Assembly (NCBI GenBank): GCA_963796455.1
Contig: CAWCLO010000008.1
Span: forward strand, 1-64,000
Length of the DNA stretch: 64,000 nucleotides
DNA from: Candidatus Sulfomarinibacteraceae bacterium
GTDB lineage: Bacteria; Acidobacteriota; Thermoanaerobaculia; Thermoanaerobaculales; Sulfomarinibacteraceae
Reading direction: 5' to 3'
Of the stretch, positions 4,619 to 58,522 are shown piece after piece (position 1 is the first letter of the stretch; each line of letters begins with the position of its first letter). The translations under genes were made by a program, and so were the position numbers. The notes beneath the pieces were generated by a model. The model ran no database searches, was not told the DNA's origin, and worked only from the letters and a program-made list of their open reading frames with translations.

Positions 4619-4960
4619 CCCGCGCCCGCGCCTGAATTTGGCAGAGGAGTGGAGGGGCAGGGGGCAGAGGGGCAGGGGGGAAAGGGAGAAAGGGGGAAAG
4701 GGTGGCCGCCTCCGAGCGCGCCCACCACCATCTCACGACCGCTCACAACGGATAGAGCCGCAGATTGTCTGGCCCGATCTGATTTGCGTCCATCTGCGTG
4801 ATCTGCGGTTTCTCCGTCTCTTAGGCTCCGGCCCACCCACTTTCCCGCGTCTGCGCCCAAGGCTGAATCTCGTAGAGGAGCAGAGGGGCAGAGGGGCAGG
4901 GGGGAAAGGGAGCGAAGCGATGCCGGGCAGTGTGTCCCCCGTTCCCCCTTTCTCCCCTTC
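4617..4960. repeat. Duplicated purine-rich octamer tracts (GAGGGGCA/GGGAGAAA) with a pyrimidine counter-arm and an ATCTGCG motif cluster
   Basis: CTGAAT..AGAGGAG..GAGGGGCAG..GGGGGGAAAGGGAG at ~4632-4690 and ~4863-4912; CCCCCTTTCTCCCC at ~4944; ATCTGCGTGATCTGCGG at ~4792. Confidence 0.7.
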
Positions 4961-6739: not shown

Positions 6740-6740
6740 A

Positions 6741-6812
6741 TAGAGGGGCAGGGAAGTAGAGGAGCAGGAGGGCACGGGAAAAAGGGAGAAAGGGAGAAAG
6801 TGGGAAAGGGCG
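6741..6812. repeat. Purine-rich octamer tract (GGGAGAAA-type)
   Basis: AAGGGAGAAAGGGAGAAAGTGGGAAAGGG. Confidence 0.7.
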
Positions 6813-6820
6813 AATCTCGG

Positions 6821-7468
6821 TCAGGATGACAAGGTGGGCACGAGGTTTCGATAGACCACGACCGAGCCCCTTTCGGCACGAATGTGGACGGTTTTCTCGG
6901 TCGCCTCGTTCGAGACGGATGGTTTGCTAGCGGCATCGATCGGGGCATTCTCCAGCGGCCACCTGACCCCGGTGATGGTGACCCTGACGTCCGGATCATA
7001 GGTCCAGAACGACCAGGTCTCGCCAACCTCCGCCGGCAGAAATGCCTCGTCTCGGACCGCCAGTGCGACGCAGTCATCGCCCTCGAAAACCAGGTTTTCT
7101 CCCATCCCCAGTCGAGCCAGAAGACCCAGATTACCGAGATCGTGATCGGTGCGGCTGCCGAGTGCTGCAAGGACCCCGATACGGTCGATGCCGAGGTCGT
7201 CGAAGGCGTATTCGAGGGCCTTGTCGAGGTCGGTGCGATTCTGATCCGGGCGGAGAACCATCCGTTCTTCACCGATCCATCTGCGGGTCGGGTCATTGAT
7301 GGAGTCGAGATCACCGATCACCGCCATCGGTTTGAGGCCGAGCCCGGCCAGGTGATTCGCCCCGCCGTCGGCGGCCAGAAGGACCGCGGCATCGCGAGCC
7401 ATTGCCGCCGTCTTTTCGCTCCATTCAAAGGGTGAACCGGCCACCAGGAGTGCTCGTCCGCCTGTCAT
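6821..7468 (-). CDS. thiN: Thiamine diphosphokinase
   Basis: AADGGA, IGDLDS, DQNRTDLDKAL, GSRTDH, VSNE motifs. Confidence 0.92.
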   Translation of the reverse strand: MTGGRALLVAGSPFEWSEKTAAMARDAAVLLAADGGANHLAGLGLKPMAVIGDLDSINDPTRRWIGEERMVLRPDQNRTDLDKALEYAFDDLGIDRIGVLAALGSRTDHDLGNLGLLARLGMGENLVFEGDDCVALAVRDEAFLPAEVGETWSFWTYDPDVRVTITGVRWPLENAPIDAASKPSVSNEATEKTVHIRAERGSVVVYRNLVPTLSS

Positions 7469-9058: not shown

Positions 9059-9084
9059 AAATTTCGGATTTCGGATTTCGAAAT
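9057..9084. repeat. Heptamer tract (GATTTCG) abutting the element end
   Basis: AAATTTCGGATTTCGGATTTCGAAAT. Confidence 0.75.
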
Positions 9085-9939
9085 CACTGATGTCCTCGAG
9101 TGAGTCTCGGACAACGATCGGGGACAGCGGCGGGGAACGGTAGACAGCGTCAGCGAACAGCGATCGGTGATCAGCGGCAGAATTCAGCTGTCAGCGACAG
9201 CGATCAGCGCTCACGTTTTTGGGTTCAACAGCCGCCAGGTCATCGCACGGACCTGATCGAAGGCGTTCATTGCTTCACTGGCACCATTCCGGCTGATCGC
9301 ACCGGCGTGGGCGAGGAGCATTAAGTGGCTGTCGACCTCTTTGGCCGAGGCGTAGGCGATTCTCCAGTGGTTCAACCGGTCTCTACCGAATCGGCCGTGC
9401 CCTTCTGCCAGATTCGCTGGGACTGAACTTGCCGACCGGATCACCTGATCGGCTATGGACTTCAGAGGAGCTGGAACCCTCATCACGAGCTTGATCGCGA
9501 TTCCTGCTGCTTCGAGTGCTTTCGAGTGGGCAACGAGGTTGGTGGTCGTGGCTGCGTTGGACATGGTCACCTCCGGGTCGTTCATGCCCATATCCACAAG
9601 CCGGTGTGGTGGCCGATGTCAAGGATGCCCTGCACCCTGCCTGTCCTTGACATCGGCCGCCCACCGGCTACCCCTTCTGATGAACGACCCGGAGGTGGCC
9701 ACGCCGTCGCCTGGACTCCTGATCGCTGCCGCTGGACACTGAACGCTGTCCCTGATCGCCGATCGCTGTCCCTGTCCGCTGTTACCTGTCGCTGTCGCTG
9801 GAAACTGTCGCTGCCGCTGCAACGCGGACGCGGACACGGGCACGTGCCAACCGCCAATCGGATATGCCAAAAACCAGCCCATGACCCTTGTGTCTTCACG
9901 TGGGCAAGGTCGGCCGTGGATTTGTAATGGGCAGGAGTA
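9085..9939 (-). mobile_element. Putative full-length TIR-bounded element carrying a four-helix-bundle gene
   Basis: Ends CACTGATGTCC (9085) and, on the reverse strand, TACTCCTGCCCA (9939) match the termini of copies at 34573, 36527 and 55688; CAGCGA-rich and TCGCTG-rich arms. Confidence 0.7.
9211..9564 (-). CDS. Four-helix-bundle protein (23S rRNA IVS protein/Avd-like family)
   Basis: 'DQVIRSASSVPANLAEGHGR...IAYASAKEV' matches the family QxxRAAxSxxxNIAEG..R signature; GGAGGTG RBS before ATG 9564. Confidence 0.9.
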   Translation of the reverse strand: MSNAATTTNLVAHSKALEAAGIAIKLVMRVPAPLKSIADQVIRSASSVPANLAEGHGRFGRDRLNHWRIAYASAKEVDSHLMLLAHAGAISRNGASEAMNAFDQVRAMTWRLLNPKT

Positions 9940-10412: not shown

Positions 10413-10480
10413 CGGTCCTCCTTCGTCGGGAGGGATTCTAGCCGATATTTGCTTTGAGGCGATGGGGCAATGAGGTGGTG

Positions 10481-10602
10481 GGCTATAGGCCATTAGCTGC
10501 AGGCAATAAGCTATAGGCTATAAGCTATAGGCTATAAGCTATGGGCTATGGGCTATGGGCTATGGGCTATGCGCTATGGGGGATGGGCTATAAGCTATTG
10601 GC
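10481..10602. repeat. Heptamer arm (GCTATRR)n, left arm of the inverted repeat around tlyA
   Basis: GCTATAG/GCTATAA/GCTATGG units. Confidence 0.95.
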
Positions 10603-10603
10603 C

Positions 10604-11350
10604 GTGAGGAAAAAGCAACGTCTCGACGTTATTCTCTCTGAGCGCGGTCTTGCACCGTCACGGGCGCGAGCACAGTCACTGATACTGACGGCGAAAGTTC
10701 GGGTCGACGGCAATATCGAAACCAAGGCCGGCACTCAAATCGATCCGGCGGCCAATATCGAGATAACCATCCCGGACCACCCCTATGTTTCCCGCGGCGC
10801 TCTCAAGCTCGTCGCCGCTCTCGACGAATTCGCGATCTCTCCGGAAGGTCTCGATTGTCTGGACATCGGCGCCTCGACGGGCGGCTTCACCGACGTCATG
10901 TTGCAGCGCGGCGCGCGACGGGTCATCGCCCTTGACGTGGGACGTGGCCAACTCGACTGGCGACTCCGCACCGATGACCGTGTGGTGGTGATGGAAGGAG
11001 TCAATGCGCGCCACCTCGAGACCGATGAACTGCCGTTTGCTGTAGCGCTCGCCACCATCGATGTTTCGTTCATTTCGCTGACCCTCGTGGTGCCCTCGAT
11101 CATTCCCCACCTGCTCCCCGGGGCGTGGTTGGTGTGCCTGGTGAAACCCCAGTTTGAAGCCGGGCGGGACCAGGTCGGAAAAGGAGGTATCGTTCGCGAC
11201 GAAACGATCCGCCGCACCACCATCGATCGAACTGTTCAGAGCATTTCGGAGCTTGGTCTGGACTTTTCCGGAACCATCGAGTCGCCGATTCGAGGCCAGA
11301 AAGGCAATCTCGAAGAACTCGCCGTCTTCAAGAAACCAATACCAGCTTGA
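10604..11350 (+). CDS. tlyA: TlyA rRNA (cytidine-2'-O)-methyltransferase
   Basis: S4 domain (RLD..L..RGL..SR..A), YVSRGALKL, DIGASTGGFTD, DVSFISL, KPQFE, GNxE; start GTG inferred. Confidence 0.95.
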   Translation: MRKKQRLDVILSERGLAPSRARAQSLILTAKVRVDGNIETKAGTQIDPAANIEITIPDHPYVSRGALKLVAALDEFAISPEGLDCLDIGASTGGFTDVMLQRGARRVIALDVGRGQLDWRLRTDDRVVVMEGVNARHLETDELPFAVALATIDVSFISLTLVVPSIIPHLLPGAWLVCLVKPQFEAGRDQVGKGGIVRDETIRRTTIDRTVQSISELGLDFSGTIESPIRGQKGNLEELAVFKKPIPA

Positions 11351-11352
11351 AT

Positions 11353-11450
11353 CTCATAGCCCCATAGCCCCATAGCTCATAGCCCCATAGCCCATAGCCC
11401 ATAGCCCATAGCTTATAGCCTATAGCTTATAGCCTATAGCTTTTAGCCCC
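11353..11450. repeat. Heptamer arm (YYATAGC)n, right arm of the inverted repeat around tlyA
   Basis: CCATAGC/TTATAGC/CTATAGC units. Confidence 0.95.
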
Positions 11451-11476
11451 AGCCCGCAGCCTCACTGCCTGTGTGC

Positions 11477-17129: not shown

Positions 17130-17360
17130 GGCAAACAGGGACAGGGACAGCGTCCAGCGGCAGCGACAGGGACAGCGACCGGGATCAGCGATCAGTGTCA
17201 ACAGCGAACAGCGAACAGCGATCAGTGGTCAGCGGTCAGCGCATTGAACCATCCTGTCTGGAGAATCTGTCGCTGAAGACTGCCGCTGATTACTGTTCGC
17301 TGTCGCGGCCCCAGTCGCTGTCCCTGAACGTTGTCCGAGACACACTCTTGGAAAAGGGTG
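17130..17360 (+). mobile_element. Degenerate ORF-less derivative of the TIR element
   Basis: CAGCGA-rich then TCGCTG-rich arms; 3' end CTGAACGTTGTCCGAGACACACTCTTGGAAAAGGGTG. Confidence 0.55.
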
Positions 17361-34572: not shown

Positions 34573-34848
34573 CGTTGCTCTCAAAAACAAATCGTCATTC
34601 GAAGTTGCCCCGCGTCCGCGTCCGTGCCCGTATTGCAGCGTCAGCGACAGTGATCGGCGACAGGAAACAGCGACAGTGTCCAGCGTCAGAGATCAGGCCC
34701 AGTGATCAGGTGCCGTGACGACGTGGCCACCTCCGGGTCGCTCAACGGATCGGAGTAGCCGGTGGGCGGCCGCTGATCGCTGCTGCAGACAGCTGTTCCC
34801 CGTCGCTGTCCCTGAACCCTGCCGAGACTCTGTTTTTGGACAAAAGTT
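34573..34848 (+). mobile_element. ORF-less deletion derivative of the four-helix-bundle TIR element
   Basis: Shares ACAAATC, GTCCGCGTCCG, CGTGGCCACCTCCGGGTCG, GTAGCCGGTGGGCGGCCG and CCGAGACTC..TTGGACA with 9085-9939. Confidence 0.75.
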
Positions 34849-36526: not shown

Positions 36527-36959
36527 CACTGCTGTCCAAAACAAATCGGCATGTGAGGTTGCGCACCAGGAAACACGAGATTTGCGGGTCGGTTTTTGGA
36601 AATTTCCGTTCGCGGTTGCCCTTGTCCGCGTCCGTGTCCTTGCCCGAATTGCAGCGGCAGCGACAGTGTCCAGGGGCAGCGACAGGGATCAGCGATCAGA
36701 GGCAGAAATCAGGTGCAGCGACGGCGTGGTCACCGCCGGGTCGTTCAATAAAAGGAACAGCCGTTGTGGTGTCGGCGTCTCGCTTGCCCACCGTGCGGCC
36801 GAGACGGCCGCACCACCAAGGGCGGAGTCCCGAAGAAACGAGTGCTGTTCACTGTCCCGGCCGCTGATCGCTGACGCTGATGACTGAACACTGCCGCTGG
36901 CGACTGTTTGCTGCCGCTGCCCCTGAACGCTATCCGAGACTCTGTCTTGGACAAGAGTA
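36527..36959 (+). mobile_element. ORF-less TIR element copy containing a REP-like doublet, flanked by ATGCTGGAT direct repeats
   Basis: CACTGCTGTCCAA ... TTGGACAAGAGTA; ATGCTGGAT at 36518 and 36960. Confidence 0.78.
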
Positions 36960-37077: not shown

Positions 37078-37196
37078 GCATCTAGCATCTAGCATCTAGC
37101 ATCTAGCATCTAGCATCTAGCATCTAGCATCTAGCATCTAGCATCTAGCATCTAGCATCTAGCATCTAGCATCTAGCATCTAGCATCTAGCATCCA
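37078..37196. repeat. Perfect heptamer tandem repeat (GCATCTA)x16 plus one variant unit
   Basis: Directly visible. Confidence 0.98.
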
Positions 37197-38593: not shown

Positions 38594-38820
38594 CTCCGAT
38601 CCCGATCCCGATCCCGTTCCCGACGAGATACTGGATACTCGATGCTCGATTCACACACCGATCGGAATCAGAGTTCCTGGGGTAGGCAACGGATCGAGTG
38701 TCGCTGTTGTCCAAGATACGGGCGACAGGGACAACGACAGGAACAGCGACAGCGGCAGGGAACAGCGACCGGGAACAGGGATCCGTGTTCAGCGGCAGCG
38801 ATCAGGAATCCAGGCCGCGA
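38594..38820. repeat. Composite of (CCGATC)n, GATACTG heptamers and a partial TIR element (38702-38820)
   Basis: CGCTGTTGTCCAAGA end; GTGTTCAGCGGCAGCGATCAGGAATCCAGG shared with other copies. Confidence 0.65.
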
Positions 38821-39795: not shown

Positions 39796-40775
39796 AAACC
39801 ACGAGGTATCGAGGCGCGGAAAGAAAGCCCGCAGATCAAGCAGGGAGACGCTGATCCCTCGCGCTCGCTGTCGTCGCAAACACGAAGACACGAAGGCACG
39901 AAGGAGTCACACCAAGAAAACCACAGAGGCCCAGAGACACAGAGAGAACGCCCGCAGATCACGCAGATAGACGCAGATCCATGGCAAACGGTCTCGTTGC
40001 AGAAACGATTGCCCACAGATCACCCCGATGGACCCAGATACAGCCAAGAACGTCGCAACCACAGAGGCCCAGAGACACAGAGAGATCACAGAGGAGAAGT
40101 GCAGCCGAGACGGCTGCACCACCATGGTGGTGCACGCGTCTCGCGTGCACATTGATGAACCACGAAGAACGCAAAGAACGCAAAGGCTCGGTTGGCGAGC
40201 TTGTGAGGTGTTGCCATCAGTGTCGGCAGATCGACAGACGATTTCCAATCGCCTGTCACCGGTGAGAAGCGGGGTGACCCCGATCGCCAGCGCTCGGAGT
40301 CACCCCGCTCCCCACCGACCGGCACGCCTACGGCATGCCGGATCTGCCTTGCATCGGAGACCCCCTTCCTTGATTGAAGGATGGGAGAGGACGGAGGCGA
40401 GGCCTGCGCGGTCGCGCAGGCAGCTGAGTCAGGAAACCGCGACGAAAGCTGGTTTTCGGGGCGGTTTCCTGACCCAGCTGTACCCGGCCGCCGGATGGCG
40501 GCCGGGTCCTCGCCGGGCGGAGGAGCCCTCCGGGAAGTCCTCTGCGTCTCCGCGACTCTGCGCCTCTGCGTTCAATACACTTTTGGCAATATCGTTCCAG
40601 CAGTTCGGCTGCCATTGCGCCTTCGCGTCTTTCCGCCTTTGCGTTGATCAACCCCGACGCTGACGCCGTTCGACTGCGGAGATGGCTGATGCCCTCGCAA
40701 TCAAGCTGGCATCTGCGTCAATCTGCGTGATCTGCGGGCATATTGCGCTGCTTTTTGGTGCCGTGGTGGTTGCGA
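39796..40775. repeat. Nested inverted triplet-motif arms around a multi-hairpin core
   Basis: CGCAGAT/CACAGAG/CACGAAG/CGCAAAG clusters on the left; CTCTGCG/CTTTGCG/ATCTGCG clusters on the right; several long stems between. Confidence 0.8.
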
Positions 40776-46631: not shown

Positions 46632-46704
46632 GGGTCTCTCATCCTACCTCAAAACGGCTTCAGAATCTCGCAATCTACCGAGACCGTTTCTGACCAAATA
46701 CCAA

Positions 46705-46865
46705 GGGGCGGAGGGCAGGGGGGCGGAGGGGAAAGGGGGAAGGGGAGAAAAGGGGAAAGGGAGACCGTCCAGTCTCTCGATACTCGATGCTGGATTCCGA
46801 ACCAGGACGGCGGAGGCGCATGGGGGCGGAGCGGCAGAAGAGAAATGGGGAAACGGAGAAAGGGT
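46705..46865. repeat. Purine-rich octamer tracts and GATACTC/GATGCTG heptamers
   Basis: GGGGAAAGGGGGAAGGGGAGAAAAGGGGAAAGGG; CTCGATACTCGATGCTGGAT. Confidence 0.65.
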
Positions 46866-46889
46866 GGAACCACCCGCCACCGACTACCC

Positions 46890-47047
46890 ACTCATGCGAG
46901 TGTCGCCTCCCGATGTCATCCTGAGCGGAGCCCGCCCTGGGGCGTAGTCGAAGGATCTATGAGACGGACCGCAAAAACCTCGAACCGCAGATCCTTCGAC
47001 TTCGCGCCGAAGGCGCTTCGCTCAGGATGACATATTGAACGACAGTT
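46890..47047 (-). repeat. Palindromic repeat element (GTCATCCTGAGCG..AGGATC type), copy A
   Basis: ATGTCATCCTGAGCG...CGCTCAGGATGACAT (46913-47033); reverse complement of 52382-52539. Confidence 0.9.
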
Positions 47048-47139
47048 CCGATCCCGATCCCGTTCAGGAGAAGGGAAGAAGGGGAGTGCGGGAGGCCGAG
47101 GTTGATTGAAGGGTCGGAATCCAGTATTCGTGTTTCCGC

Positions 47140-52248: not shown

Positions 52249-52259
52249 GGTATCGGCTC

Positions 52260-52381
52260 GAGCAGAGGAGCAGAGGAGCAGAGGAGCAGAGGAGACCCTG
52301 CCCCTTTTCACCAACGACGTTTCCGGTACGGTCTCTCCCTTTCTCCCTTTCTCCCTTCCTCCCTTTCGGGAACGGGAACGG
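52260..52381. repeat. (GAGCAGAG)n and (TTTCTCCC)n octamer arms plus (GGGAAC)3
   Basis: Directly visible. Confidence 0.8.
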
Positions 52382-52539
52382 AACTCTCGTTCAATATGTC
52401 ATCCTGAGCGAAGCGCCTACGGCGCGAAGTCGAAGGATCTGCGGTTCGAGGTTTTTGCGGTTCGTCTCATAGATCCTTCGACTACGCCCCAGGGCGGGCT
52501 CCGCTCAGGATGACATCGGGAGGCGACATTCGCTTGAGT
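52382..52539 (+). repeat. Palindromic repeat element, copy B (inverted relative to 46890-47047)
   Basis: ATGTCATCCTGAGCGAAG...GCTCAGGATGACAT (52396-52516). Confidence 0.9.
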
Positions 52540-52633
52540 TCGAAGTCAGTGCGGGTGATTCCCCCTTTCCCCCTTTCACCCCTGCCCCCTTTCCCCTCGC
52601 CCTTCCGCCGCGCGGATCCAGTAAGCTCGGGGC

Positions 52634-55687: not shown

Positions 55688-56131
<444 letters not shown>

Positions 56132-56202: not shown

Positions 56203-58263
56203 ATGACCCAGGGTAGGATTTTCGTGCTTGTTCTGATTCTGATGGCAGGTGTGGCCGGCGCGCAACAACACGCTTTCAACGTCCACGACCTGGTGGCCAT
56301 GCAGCGGGTGGCCGATCCGCAACCGTCGCCCGACGGCAGCGTAGCCGCCTTCGTGGTCACCACCATCGATCTCGCGGCCAACAAGGGTCGGCGGGATATC
56401 TGGTTGGCTGCCACCGATGGTTCGGGTGAGCGGCAACTTACCGATGATCCGGCCAACGATTGGAGCCCGCGCTGGAACGGTGACGGCAGCTTCTACTTTC
56501 TTTCGTCTCGATCCGGATCGGCCCAGGTCTTTCGTTACGACATGAAGACCGGGGCCCAGACCCAGATCACCGATCTCCCCCTCGGAGTCGACGCGCTCAA
56601 GGTGGGGCCCGGCGGCAAGGCGCTGTACGTGGGACTTGCGGTCTTCCCCGATTGCGGGCCTTCCGTCGCCTGTACCCAGTCGAAGCTCGAGGCGCGGAAA
56701 GCGCAGAAGACAACCGGTCTGGTTTTTGACAAGGTCTTTGTTCGTCACTGGGACACCTGGAAGGATGGCCGCCGCAACCACGTCTTTCGAATTCCGATCC
56801 TCGGCAACGGTACCGCAGGTGAGGCGGTGGATCTGATGGCAGGTGTCGATGGCGATTGTCCGACAATTCCGTGGGGTGGAGACGGAGACTTCGACATTTC
56901 ACCCGATGACGCCTGGTTGGTTTACTCCGCCAAGGTCGTTGCTGGGTCGGAGGAGGTGTGGTCCACGGATTGGGATCTGTGGAAGGTCCCGACCGACGGG
57001 TCGCAGGCGCCGCGCTGCCTGACCGAAGACAACCAGGCGTGGGATGCGGCCCCGGCCTTTTCCCCCGACGGATCCAGCCTCGCCTACCTCGCCATGGCTC
57101 GACCCGGATTCGAGGCCGACCGCTACCGGGTTCGTATCATGAACTGGAACGATGGATCGGTTCGTCCGGTTGCTGATAACTGGGACCGGTCGCCGGGTTC
57201 GCTGGTATGGTCGCCCGATGGGTCGAAGATTTTCACCTCGGCCAACAACATCGGCAATCACACGATTTTCAGCATCGATCCGGCCGACGAAATGGTCTCG
57301 GCGGCCATCACCCTCAACACCAACTCGAACCCGCGACCGTTGCCGGACGGCCGTCTGCTCTTCACCCGCGACAGCCTCACCTCTCCGGTGGAGCTCTATG
57401 TGCTCCCGAAAGGCGGAGGAACACCGGCGCCGATCACTCACCGAAACGACCGGCGCCTGGCCTCGATCGAGTTTGGAAGGTACGAGCAGTTTTCTTTCAC
57501 CGGCGCCCACAACGACGAGGTCTTCGGCTATCTGGTCTATCCCGTCGGTTTTGATCCTCAACAGACCTATCCCCTGGCTTTCATCGTCCACGGGGGGCCC
57601 CAGGGCAGCTCTGACGACCACTGGCACTACCGCTGGAATCCGCAGATCTATGCGGGCCACGGTTATGTCACCGTGATGATCGATTTCCACGGTTCCACCG
57701 GTTATGGTCAGGACTTCACCGATGCCATCCGGGGCGACTGGGGTGGAGCACCCTATGAGGACCTGATGACCGGGCTCGACTATGTGCTCGCCACCTATCG
57801 TTTCGTCGATTCCGAACGCATGGCTGCGGCCGGGGCGAGCTTTGGCGGATACATGATCAACTGGATCCAGGGCCAGACCGATCGTTTCAAGGCCCTCGTC
57901 TGCCACGACGGGAACCTCGACGAACTGATGGCCTACTACGACACTGAAGAACTGTGGTTCCCGGAGTGGGAACACGGCGGCACACCCTGGGAGAACCCCG
58001 AGGGCTATCGCAAACACTCACCGGTGAACCACGTGCAGAACTGGAAGACCCCTGAACTGGTGGTCCACGGCGCGCTCGACTATCGGGTTGTGGACACCCA
58101 GGGCCTCGCCACTTTCAACGCCCTGCAACGCCTTGGGGTGCCCTCGCGTCTGCTCTATTATCCGGACGAAAATCACTGGGTGCTCAAACCGCTGAACTCC
58201 ATTCAATGGCATGAGGAGGTGTTGGGATGGATGGATCGGTGGACGGGGGTGGGAGAAGAGTAG
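56203..58263 (+). CDS. S9 family peptidase (dipeptidyl-peptidase 5-like)
   Basis: Signal peptide; beta-propeller SPDG repeats; HGGPQ, GASFGG, DYRV, DENHW. Confidence 0.95.
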   Translation: MTQGRIFVLVLILMAGVAGAQQHAFNVHDLVAMQRVADPQPSPDGSVAAFVVTTIDLAANKGRRDIWLAATDGSGERQLTDDPANDWSPRWNGDGSFYFLSSRSGSAQVFRYDMKTGAQTQITDLPLGVDALKVGPGGKALYVGLAVFPDCGPSVACTQSKLEARKAQKTTGLVFDKVFVRHWDTWKDGRRNHVFRIPILGNGTAGEAVDLMAGVDGDCPTIPWGGDGDFDISPDDAWLVYSAKVVAGSEEVWSTDWDLWKVPTDGSQAPRCLTEDNQAWDAAPAFSPDGSSLAYLAMARPGFEADRYRVRIMNWNDGSVRPVADNWDRSPGSLVWSPDGSKIFTSANNIGNHTIFSIDPADEMVSAAITLNTNSNPRPLPDGRLLFTRDSLTSPVELYVLPKGGGTPAPITHRNDRRLASIEFGRYEQFSFTGAHNDEVFGYLVYPVGFDPQQTYPLAFIVHGGPQGSSDDHWHYRWNPQIYAGHGYVTVMIDFHGSTGYGQDFTDAIRGDWGGAPYEDLMTGLDYVLATYRFVDSERMAAAGASFGGYMINWIQGQTDRFKALVCHDGNLDELMAYYDTEELWFPEWEHGGTPWENPEGYRKHSPVNHVQNWKTPELVVHGALDYRVVDTQGLATFNALQRLGVPSRLLYYPDENHWVLKPLNSIQWHEEVLGWMDRWTGVGEE

Positions 58264-58366
58264 GGAGAGAGGGAGAAAGGGAGAGAGGGAGAGGAGAGGG
58301 AAAGGGGGGAGAAAGGGAGAGAGGGAGAAAGGGAGAGAGGGAGAAGGGGAGAAAGGGAGAAGGGGC
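58262..58366. repeat. Polypurine octamer tract (GGGAGARA)n
   Basis: About 100 nt of only A and G. Confidence 0.9.
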
Positions 58367-58522
58367 GATCGTTCGTTCTTCGTGCTCCTGTTCACCCTGA
58401 GCCCTGTCACCCATTTCGCGTGAAGAGACTCGTCGATCGATAATTGTTCGAGTGACTGGAATCATCGCAGACGTTTGAACAATGCTGATATTATTGATGA
58501 GTTCGGAATTGGAGGGAATCAG

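Follow-up and report, generated by a model that had tools for sequence, protein, structure and literature searches.

A transposase-less cassette with IS4-type ends that carries a conserved hairpin, predicted to be a single-strand promoter, and an Avd-fold gene

An 855-bp unit between phoH2 and osmC, in a stretch of 64,000 nucleotides that was analysed as a whole (the window), raises the question of what kind of element it is, how it came there and when its gene would be expressed. A sequence-only reading had described it as a candidate mobile element of an undescribed kind, bounded by terminal inverted repeats and carrying a gene for a four-helix-bundle protein. We consider it probable that the unit is a transposase-less, IS4-ended cassette that combines a conserved hairpin with an Avd-fold gene, the hairpin being a predicted promoter that would work only on single-stranded DNA. 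The parts of the unit are as follows.

9085..9939, minus strand: the complete cassette of 855 bp; the genome has 65 near-full-length copies with the ORF, this one included
9915..9939, minus strand: decayed terminal repeat upstream of the ORF, 16/25 match to the family end consensus
9848..9914, minus strand: subterminal block common to family copies, about 20% pairwise divergent
9706..9847, minus strand: hexamer tract and CAGCG-rich arm
9565..9700, no strand assigned: conserved hairpin of 136 nt, 7% pairwise divergent over 65 copies
9647..9670, plus strand (template): predicted fold-back promoter, pairing with 9599-9622; prediction only
9565..9585, minus strand: upstream ATG (9585), in frame and at the edge of the bubble; GGAGG ribosome-binding site within the outer stem
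9211..9564, minus strand: ORF of 117 aa, four-helix bundle, PF05635/TIGR02436, Avd-like fold
9120..9210, minus strand: CGCTG-rich arm, complement of the upstream arm
9085..9119, minus strand: end downstream of the ORF, a decayed terminal repeat (19/25 consensus match) with its subterminal block
9059..9084, plus strand: heptamer array at the 3' end of phoH2, the insertion target, read from the sequence; congeners have heptamer arrays here

Both ends of this copy, though decayed, align gap-free with the family end consensus, and its flanks match at only four of nine positions, so that no target duplication is recognisable here. The two arms are 75% complementary (9144-9207 with 9719-9782) and the folding of the 855-bp unit beats 20 of 20 shuffles (z -5.35), which bears out the suggestion that the unit could fold back around its ORF.

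The cassette was found to belong to a large family. In the host genome, BLASTN gave 98 matches, 65 of them near-full-length ORF copies and about 33 partial, next to many forms without the ORF. The end motif was matched 269 times, making 72 end pairs, and the ends align to the consensus, which gives the copies the common boundaries that had been expected of them. The terminal repeat is about 16-18 bp long, instead of the approximately 13 bp first proposed, and the initial estimate of about six copies was right in seeing a multicopy family but far too low. Between 63 left-right end pairs lying within 1 kb of each other, a full ORF was present in 24, a partial one in 8 and none on that strand in 31, in agreement with the proposed cargo-bearing and empty forms. 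All five further places in the window where recurrence had been noticed are family members or remnants:

36527..36959, plus strand: ORF-less family member, both ends (0 and 1 mismatches), exact 9-bp duplication
55688..56131, minus strand: ORF-less member of the REP-bearing form, one end perfect and one decayed, flanks matching at 7/9
34573..34848, plus strand: internally deleted member with two decayed ends
17130..17360, plus strand: remnant with two arms and one end
38702..38820, plus strand: remnant with one end and the CAGCG arm

At 36527-36959 a REP-like palindrome takes the place of the cargo, and all end-paired elements with such a palindrome are ORF-less. It flanks Y1/RAYT genes at L368 and L369 and lies in the window at 36760-36830, 40099-40131 and 55772-55850.

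Other repeats were also observed in the window. The tlyA gene is flanked by long inverted heptamer arrays (10465-10616 and 11381-11459) that are 97% complementary over 65 nt, and a perfect heptamer array of about 16 units occupies 37078-37195. Purine-rich octamer arrays lie in intergenic gaps at 4633-4920, 6740-6830, 46699-46876, 52254-52609 and 58238-58377. A 217-nt repeat pair (46878-47094 and 52335-52551), 90% alike in inverted orientation and each with an internal palindrome, belongs to another dispersed family, and positions 59-411 hold two 161-nt tandem copies, 91% alike, together with the start of a third copy.

Analysis of the flanks pointed to transposition with a target duplication of fixed length. 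Exact flank duplications peak at 9 bp (20 of the 72 end pairs, with none at 7, 8 or 10 bp), and over the 63 close pairs 20 showed a 9-bp duplication exactly and 34 within one mismatch. Most copies sit in 7-bp arrays, periodic DNA adjoining the ends in 138 of 269 cases compared with 1.8% of random sites. Since a 2-bp duplication inside such arrays could fake a 9-bp one, the comparison was repeated on the 21 pairs outside arrays. Eight of these had at most one mismatch over 9 bp, while mismatched controls gave none; 9-bp flank identity was 0.69 versus 0.32 in the controls, and no other duplication length rose above control. The site itself is empty in the congeners, where the sequence-only reading had suggested looking: of 23 congeners with a match 20 were fetched, and in all 20 the phoH2-osmC spacer is 92-305 bp long, compared with 946 bp in the host genome; as they are other species, the junction is unreadable base by base. 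The short spacers (L011-L030) contain inverted heptamer arrays in nearly every congener, with a repeat unit that differs between genomes. Contigs from four DNA runs yielded no site-spanning piece and no clean joint of the empty allele.

We found an autonomous element with the cassette ends in a congener (L032 in G017). It is 1411 bp long, has a 427-aa frame with DUF4372 and DDE_Tnp_1, and its translation contains a complete YREK motif, Y-2-R-3-E-6-K, as the consulted section of PMC2266710 defines it. The cassette end at 9915-9939 is the counterpart of the end downstream of the transposase in L032. Other autonomous elements with these ends come from other taxa and phyla (L058, L079, L080, L084, L094, L113 and L130), and exact 9-bp duplications flank three of the eight. 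The ends, the length of 1411 bp and the 9-bp duplication fit, by table comparison only, the IS4Sa row in PMC2266710, which lists CA------T ends, 1150-1750 bp and an 8-10-bp repeat. The ends are thus not of an undescribed kind but those of IS4-family elements.

No cognate transposase was detected by tblastn in the host genome, which is 90.5% complete, or in G006; it was found in one of 25 genomes of the genus. No transposase-sized frame lies between any of the 63 end pairs, all shorter than 900 bp. The missing resident transposase fits old insertions and leaves the IS4 origin standing. Mobile insertion cassettes consist of IS ends around a passenger gene, have no transposase and are moved in trans. 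The IS4-matching ends, the 9-bp target duplications and the site empty in 20 of 20 congeners together make it likely that the 855-bp unit is such a cassette, moved in trans by an IS4 transposase. Mobilisation in trans, one of the two routes put forward at the outset, is therefore upheld, and the other, an RNA intermediate, is not, given the DDE-type ends, the 9-bp duplications and a host genome without any RVT_1 match at 90.5% completeness.

Several other candidate movers were considered and rejected. RT-driven mobility was set aside for want of an RVT_1 match in the host genome and because private changes lack an A bias (A 0.27, C 0.38, G 0.27 and T 0.32 per site). ISL3 ends in the host genome were set aside with no PF01610 match there, and its one PF01609 gene has different, 21-bp ends. 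Six Y1 matches were obtained, and of the five read none is flanked by cassette ends, the REP-like palindrome flanking two. The search of the host genome for a transposase, RAYT or RT gene with matching ends was thus negative. At L031 (C7:290500-291900) a DDE transposase gene lies between 21-bp perfect inverted ends, with an IS110-like remnant adjoining; it is unrelated to the cassette.

The family looks old in this genome and not currently spreading, as none of the 21 non-array duplications is exact and no two of 59 ORFs are identical; the earlier picture of a spreading family does not hold here. The ORF and the hairpin have been kept while ends and duplications decayed by about 20%. Divergence among the genome copies is 20-24% in the end blocks and 7% in the hairpin, and within the ORF it is 28% at synonymous and 4.8% at non-synonymous sites. 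Among the 59 ORFs of standard length (six of the 65, with small indels, were set aside), pN/pS is 0.17, and one carries a premature stop where 22-40 would be expected at 5-12% neutral divergence. Constraint is weaker on rare ORF variants (0.62 raw, 0.31 once corrected for saturation), and 39 residues are invariant across 15 sequences of two families. The possibility that the ORF is an incidental passenger in one copy is contradicted by the 65 copies and the purifying selection, even though the ends did turn out to belong to a known IS family.

As had been read from the letters, the 855-bp unit contains a 117-aa four-helix-bundle gene, whose product scored 56.5 bits against PF05635 (cut-off 33.8) and 58.6 against TIGR02436 (cut-off 24). 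The predicted structure has four helices (pLDDT 95), and the model matches 2GSC and 2RLD with TM 0.79-0.83. These entries hold five chains each, and the protein is likely, by analogy with its solved relatives, to be a pentameric nucleic-acid binder. A search of protein representatives gave 1338 matches; the PF05635 family is common, and to our knowledge no function has been shown for it outside Avd. The excerpted text of a paper on the intervening sequence of Coxiella names both transposition and a mobility protein among the open hypotheses (PMC4990558). The host genome also holds four unrelated single-copy PF05635 genes (C4:1278094, C1:983149, C9:2726 and C10:733004), each flanked by short simple repeats in inverted orientation and lacking the long hairpin.

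The hairpin between the upstream arm and the ORF, which the earlier reading had not described as promoter-like, has an outer stem (9565-9583 with 9682-9700), then an internal bubble and an inner stem, and its folding gives z -10.5. Stem covariation was assessed over 40 leaders, namely that of the window and 39 of 57 metagenome leaders, near-duplicates having been dropped by eye; 94.5% were paired and both sides had changed in 23 of 41 pairs, compared with 0 of 500 shuffles and with 27-46% in slid controls. On the template strand this hairpin presents the parts of a predicted promoter: TTGACA at 9647-9652, a 16-nt spacer, T-12 at 9669 and A-11 at 9670. The pattern TTGAC[ACT]-N15-19-TA was found on that strand in 132 of 152 genome copies, 130 of them with a spacing of 16-18 nt, and in none on the coding strand. 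The hexamer-TA combination was present in 42 of 59 copies of a separate metagenome set versus 1 of 59 on the coding strand, and in 31 of 40 versus 0 of 40 in further genera (two duplicate rows included). Kin are not independent, and the number of spacer types therefore outweighs the raw counts: the metagenome set has 33 distinct spacers, every one 16 or 17 nt long, against a TA frequency of 0.012 per position. The T at -7 is not conserved (3/132; 6/50).

In DNA folding models, the -35 element and T-12 are predicted to be paired at 90-100% and the spacer to be paired as well, with positions -11 to -4 open (3-14% paired). All 40 aligned leaders have A at -11, and it never stands opposite its complement T. 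On the template side the loop measures 13-16 nt, with 24 of the 40 leaders at exactly 13, which is the size of the open-complex bubble. An in-frame upstream ATG occurs in 64 of 65 host-genome copies and 57 of 59 metagenome copies, and its position at the bubble edge agrees with what a transcript start there would predict. A fold-back arm was found at 25 of 457 hexamer-TA sites genome-wide, all 25 from the cassette family; the test used was strict, allowed no gaps and picked up 22 of the 65 copies. We predict from these models that the hairpin is a promoter active only on single-stranded template DNA. In both window copies of the REP-like palindrome that were read, the base matching A-11 is changed.

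The preference between strands and the upkeep of the duplex vary among genomes. Strand preference is weak by wobble (21 versus 12 distinct wobble types, p 0.16), and by folding the template strand is the better of the two in 49 of 65 copies in the host genome, 4 of 17 in G008 and 5 of 14 in G004. Against the single-strand promoter also stands the lack of any replication-strand bias, leading or lagging (38:27 versus 431:374, p 0.46). The partner of TTGACA survives in 5 of 17 copies in G008 and 1 of 20 in G040. As G008 shows a burst of seven identical ORFs despite this partner loss, a perfect -35 duplex is not needed for transposition.

The same stem, as mRNA, buries the ribosome-binding site, which fits both the off state of a single-strand promoter and an alternative that we regard as unlikely. 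According to that alternative, the cassette is IS4-ended, the hairpin acts as RNA, either locking the ribosome-binding site in read-through transcripts or serving, like 23S intervening sequences, as an RNase III or protein-binding site, and the protein binds RNA and regulates itself or its neighbours. In its favour, the GGAGG site lies inside a predicted RNA hairpin of -100 kcal/mol, the whole unit can be modelled as a single RNA with paired arms, and Avd binds RNA in DGR complexes (structure entries). The copies are also enriched between convergent genes (25 of 65 against 412 of 2453 gaps, p 2.5e-5, with crude gene calls); we detected no sense/antisense bias in tandem contexts (10:20, p 0.10). 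However, an RNA role leaves unexplained the TTGACA and TA at 16-18 nt on the other strand and the invariant unpaired -11. In RNA, G-U should be tolerated, yet A-C oppositions (35) outnumber G-U (17), and the coding strand folds worse as RNA in 57 of 57 copies of the host genome, a result driven by two inherited sites. In G040 the hairpin and the upstream ATG (24 of 25 copies) are kept without the GGAGG site (0 of 25), and no Rfam family reached its cut-off.

Comparisons with relatives indicated that the predicted single-strand module has travelled in more than one vehicle, another point absent from the earlier reading. Relatives of the module were found in 61 of 119 genomes of the order and in 2 of 301 of a phylum sample. 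Both IS4 ends are present on 15 of 15 copies in G006. A different end is carried by 16 of 17 copies in G008, 11 of 12 in G014 and 20 of 20 fetched in G366/G370, and it matches autonomous ISL3 elements (L260, L261 and L263). In G017, a complete ISL3 element (L263:948-3186) and a four-helix-bundle cassette sharing its end type are separated by about 260 bp, both within the same heptamer arrays. The ISL3-type copies show apparent 8-bp duplications in 5 of 10 cases in G008 and 3 of 8 in G014, and the G006 copies show apparent duplications in 6 of 15, all of them in arrays. In G040 (C26, C52, C393, C411 and C500) and G036 (C86), four-helix-bundle genes occur in pairs, the two members no more than about 600 bp apart and for the most part oppositely oriented; these copies have no GGAGG site, and the upstream ATG is their start. 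Several genomes (L286, L105 and L008) have a leader lengthened by an insert that separates the inner stem from the ribosome-binding site.

No IS4- or ISL3-type ends were found around 25 of 25 copies in G040 and 14 of 15 in G004, genomes that hold 40 and 36 matches. In the wider tree, which does not resolve the backbone, all IS4-ended copies group in a single clade (98/99) with an end-less copy as its sister, and end-less copies are basal. The hairpin-gene module is older than its ends. From the tree we claim one probable gain of IS4 ends and no more; a change of vehicle from ISL3 to IS4, suggested by a first tree, is not upheld by the wider one. The end-less copies and their basal place also favour an alternative in which the hairpin and gene copy themselves, aided by the protein, via an intermediate of RNA or DNA, the IS ends being secondary. 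We find this improbable: copies cluster by genome, and near-identical bursts coincide with intact IS ends (the near-identical ORFs of G006 and the seven identical ones of G008); moreover the host genome has no RT, the four-helix fold has no known catalytic role, and the end-less copies may have lost old ends or carry a third end type.

The copies of the IS4-ended cassette recombine, as follows from the fall of linkage between variable sites with distance (r -0.236, 0 of 2000 permutations) and from the swapped (RR, LL) or inverted ends in 5 of 65 copies. At C10:352981-353797 of the host genome the cargo is inverted between its ends, and two ends of the same kind were seen at C1:372271, C1:611207, C1:1109038 and C4:218060, which points to recombination in the arms. 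Such recombination, the partial ORF matches, the many ORF-less forms and the possible arm-to-arm homogenisation of palindromes would suit a neutral hitchhiking cargo conserved by gene conversion, with the hairpin an ordinary palindrome or an outward duplex promoter, but this is very improbable, because conversion alone yields neither a pN/pS of 0.17 nor 39 invariant residues across 15 sequences, and an outward duplex promoter needs no hairpin, bubble or -11 mismatch and its -10 would lack T-7.

We propose a mechanism for the IS4-ended cassette in three steps. In the first, which we hold to be very probable, a DUF4372/DDE transposase would have placed the cassette, long ago, in heptamer arrays found at the 3' ends of genes. 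In the second, quite plausible though less secure, the gene would be off in double-stranded DNA, since the coding strand offers a -35 without a -10 and the ribosome-binding site would be locked in read-through mRNA, and on when the template strand is single-stranded. On folding, that strand would pair its -35 and spacer and leave a bubble open, and RNA polymerase could start at the bubble edge, giving a short transcript without the blocking arm. The third step is doubtful: the protein may act on single-stranded DNA and favour its survival or its recombination with resident copies, and such an effect would account for the selection on so many old copies and for their mosaicism. Single-stranded transfer is known in plasmids and viruses, and neither plasmids nor viral contigs gave a match to the cassette family, which counts against the single-strand model. 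The host genome does have a ComEC-family gene, but such genes are too common to count as support.

A still bolder reading, which we think rather unlikely, would make the whole a selfish module, in which a pre-opened fold-back promoter drives the Avd-like protein when the locus is single-stranded during uptake, transfer or repair, the protein aids both persistence and recombination of that strand, and IS4 and ISL3 elements captured the module independently. If so, dozens of copies together would let the whole chromosome sense single-stranded DNA, and a first function would be found for the protein family of the 23S intervening sequences. Should the promoter alone prove to work, single-strand-activated transcription would extend from plasmid leading regions to chromosomal mobile DNA, and it would indicate when the activity of the protein should be sought. 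Independently of these proposals, a PF05635 gene is found here within a bona fide transposable cassette and under selection in dozens of copies.

Among known systems, the 855-bp family has the features of a mobile insertion cassette, except for a resident transposase. It resembles MIC231 and IS231-MIC231 of the IS4 family, as presented in part of PMC2266710, in its IS4-family ends, its passenger without transposase, its target duplication and its likely movement in trans. It differs in that its ends, size and 9-bp duplication fit the IS4Sa row and not IS231, in the 65 cargo copies per genome, in a cargo under purifying selection long after end decay, and in the occurrence of that cargo in ISL3-type ends too. 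With REP/REPIN-RAYT systems it shares a palindrome like those flanking the host's two Y1/RAYT genes, in 23 of the 63 end-paired elements; the REP is, however, an insert in ORF-less forms and not the boundary of the cassette.

The fold of the protein is that of Avd of diversity-generating retroelements (4DWL and 8UB7; PMC10053308, in the portion available), with TM 0.76-0.81 for the model; identity is 7-11%, though, and the host genome has no RT, nor does a template or variable repeat adjoin the cassette. ORF-bearing 23S rRNA intervening sequences of Coxiella (S23p) and Leptospira are alike in having a PF05635 gene between complementary arms that can fold around it, and poor translation of S23p from its native context is reported in the excerpt of PMC4990558. 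The cassette, in contrast, is intergenic, has IS ends and duplications, and carries a conserved rather than an eroding ORF; the host's single 23S gene (C10:140644-143654) matches the whole model and contains no cassette copy.

The closest parallel to the predicted promoter is found in the Frpo/ssi single-stranded-DNA promoters, classes 1-3, of the F, ColIb-P9 and pESBL leading regions (described in sections of PMC9849209, PMC11541004 and PMC12672017). There, a large stem-loop upstream of a gene rebuilds -35 and -10 positions on one folded strand, as the cassette hairpin is predicted to do for the -35, the spacing and T-12/A-11. The cassette hairpin, compared by fold geometry, differs in being chromosomal, multicopy and transposon-borne, and it keeps only T-12 and A-11 of the -10, within a mismatch bubble of 13-16 nt. 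Its copies lie in chromosomal intergenic DNA and outside a conjugative leading region, which lowers its membership in that group but not the mechanistic likeness. Our literature search, with subscription papers mostly outside it, returned no paper that describes the cassette or places a single-strand promoter ahead of a PF05635 gene. A preprint reportedly deals with Avd-like genes that have short tandem repeats on either side, which may lower the novelty of the repeat-flanked layout. The vehicle is ordinary; what is out of the ordinary is the selected cargo, its two vehicles and the predicted single-strand switch.
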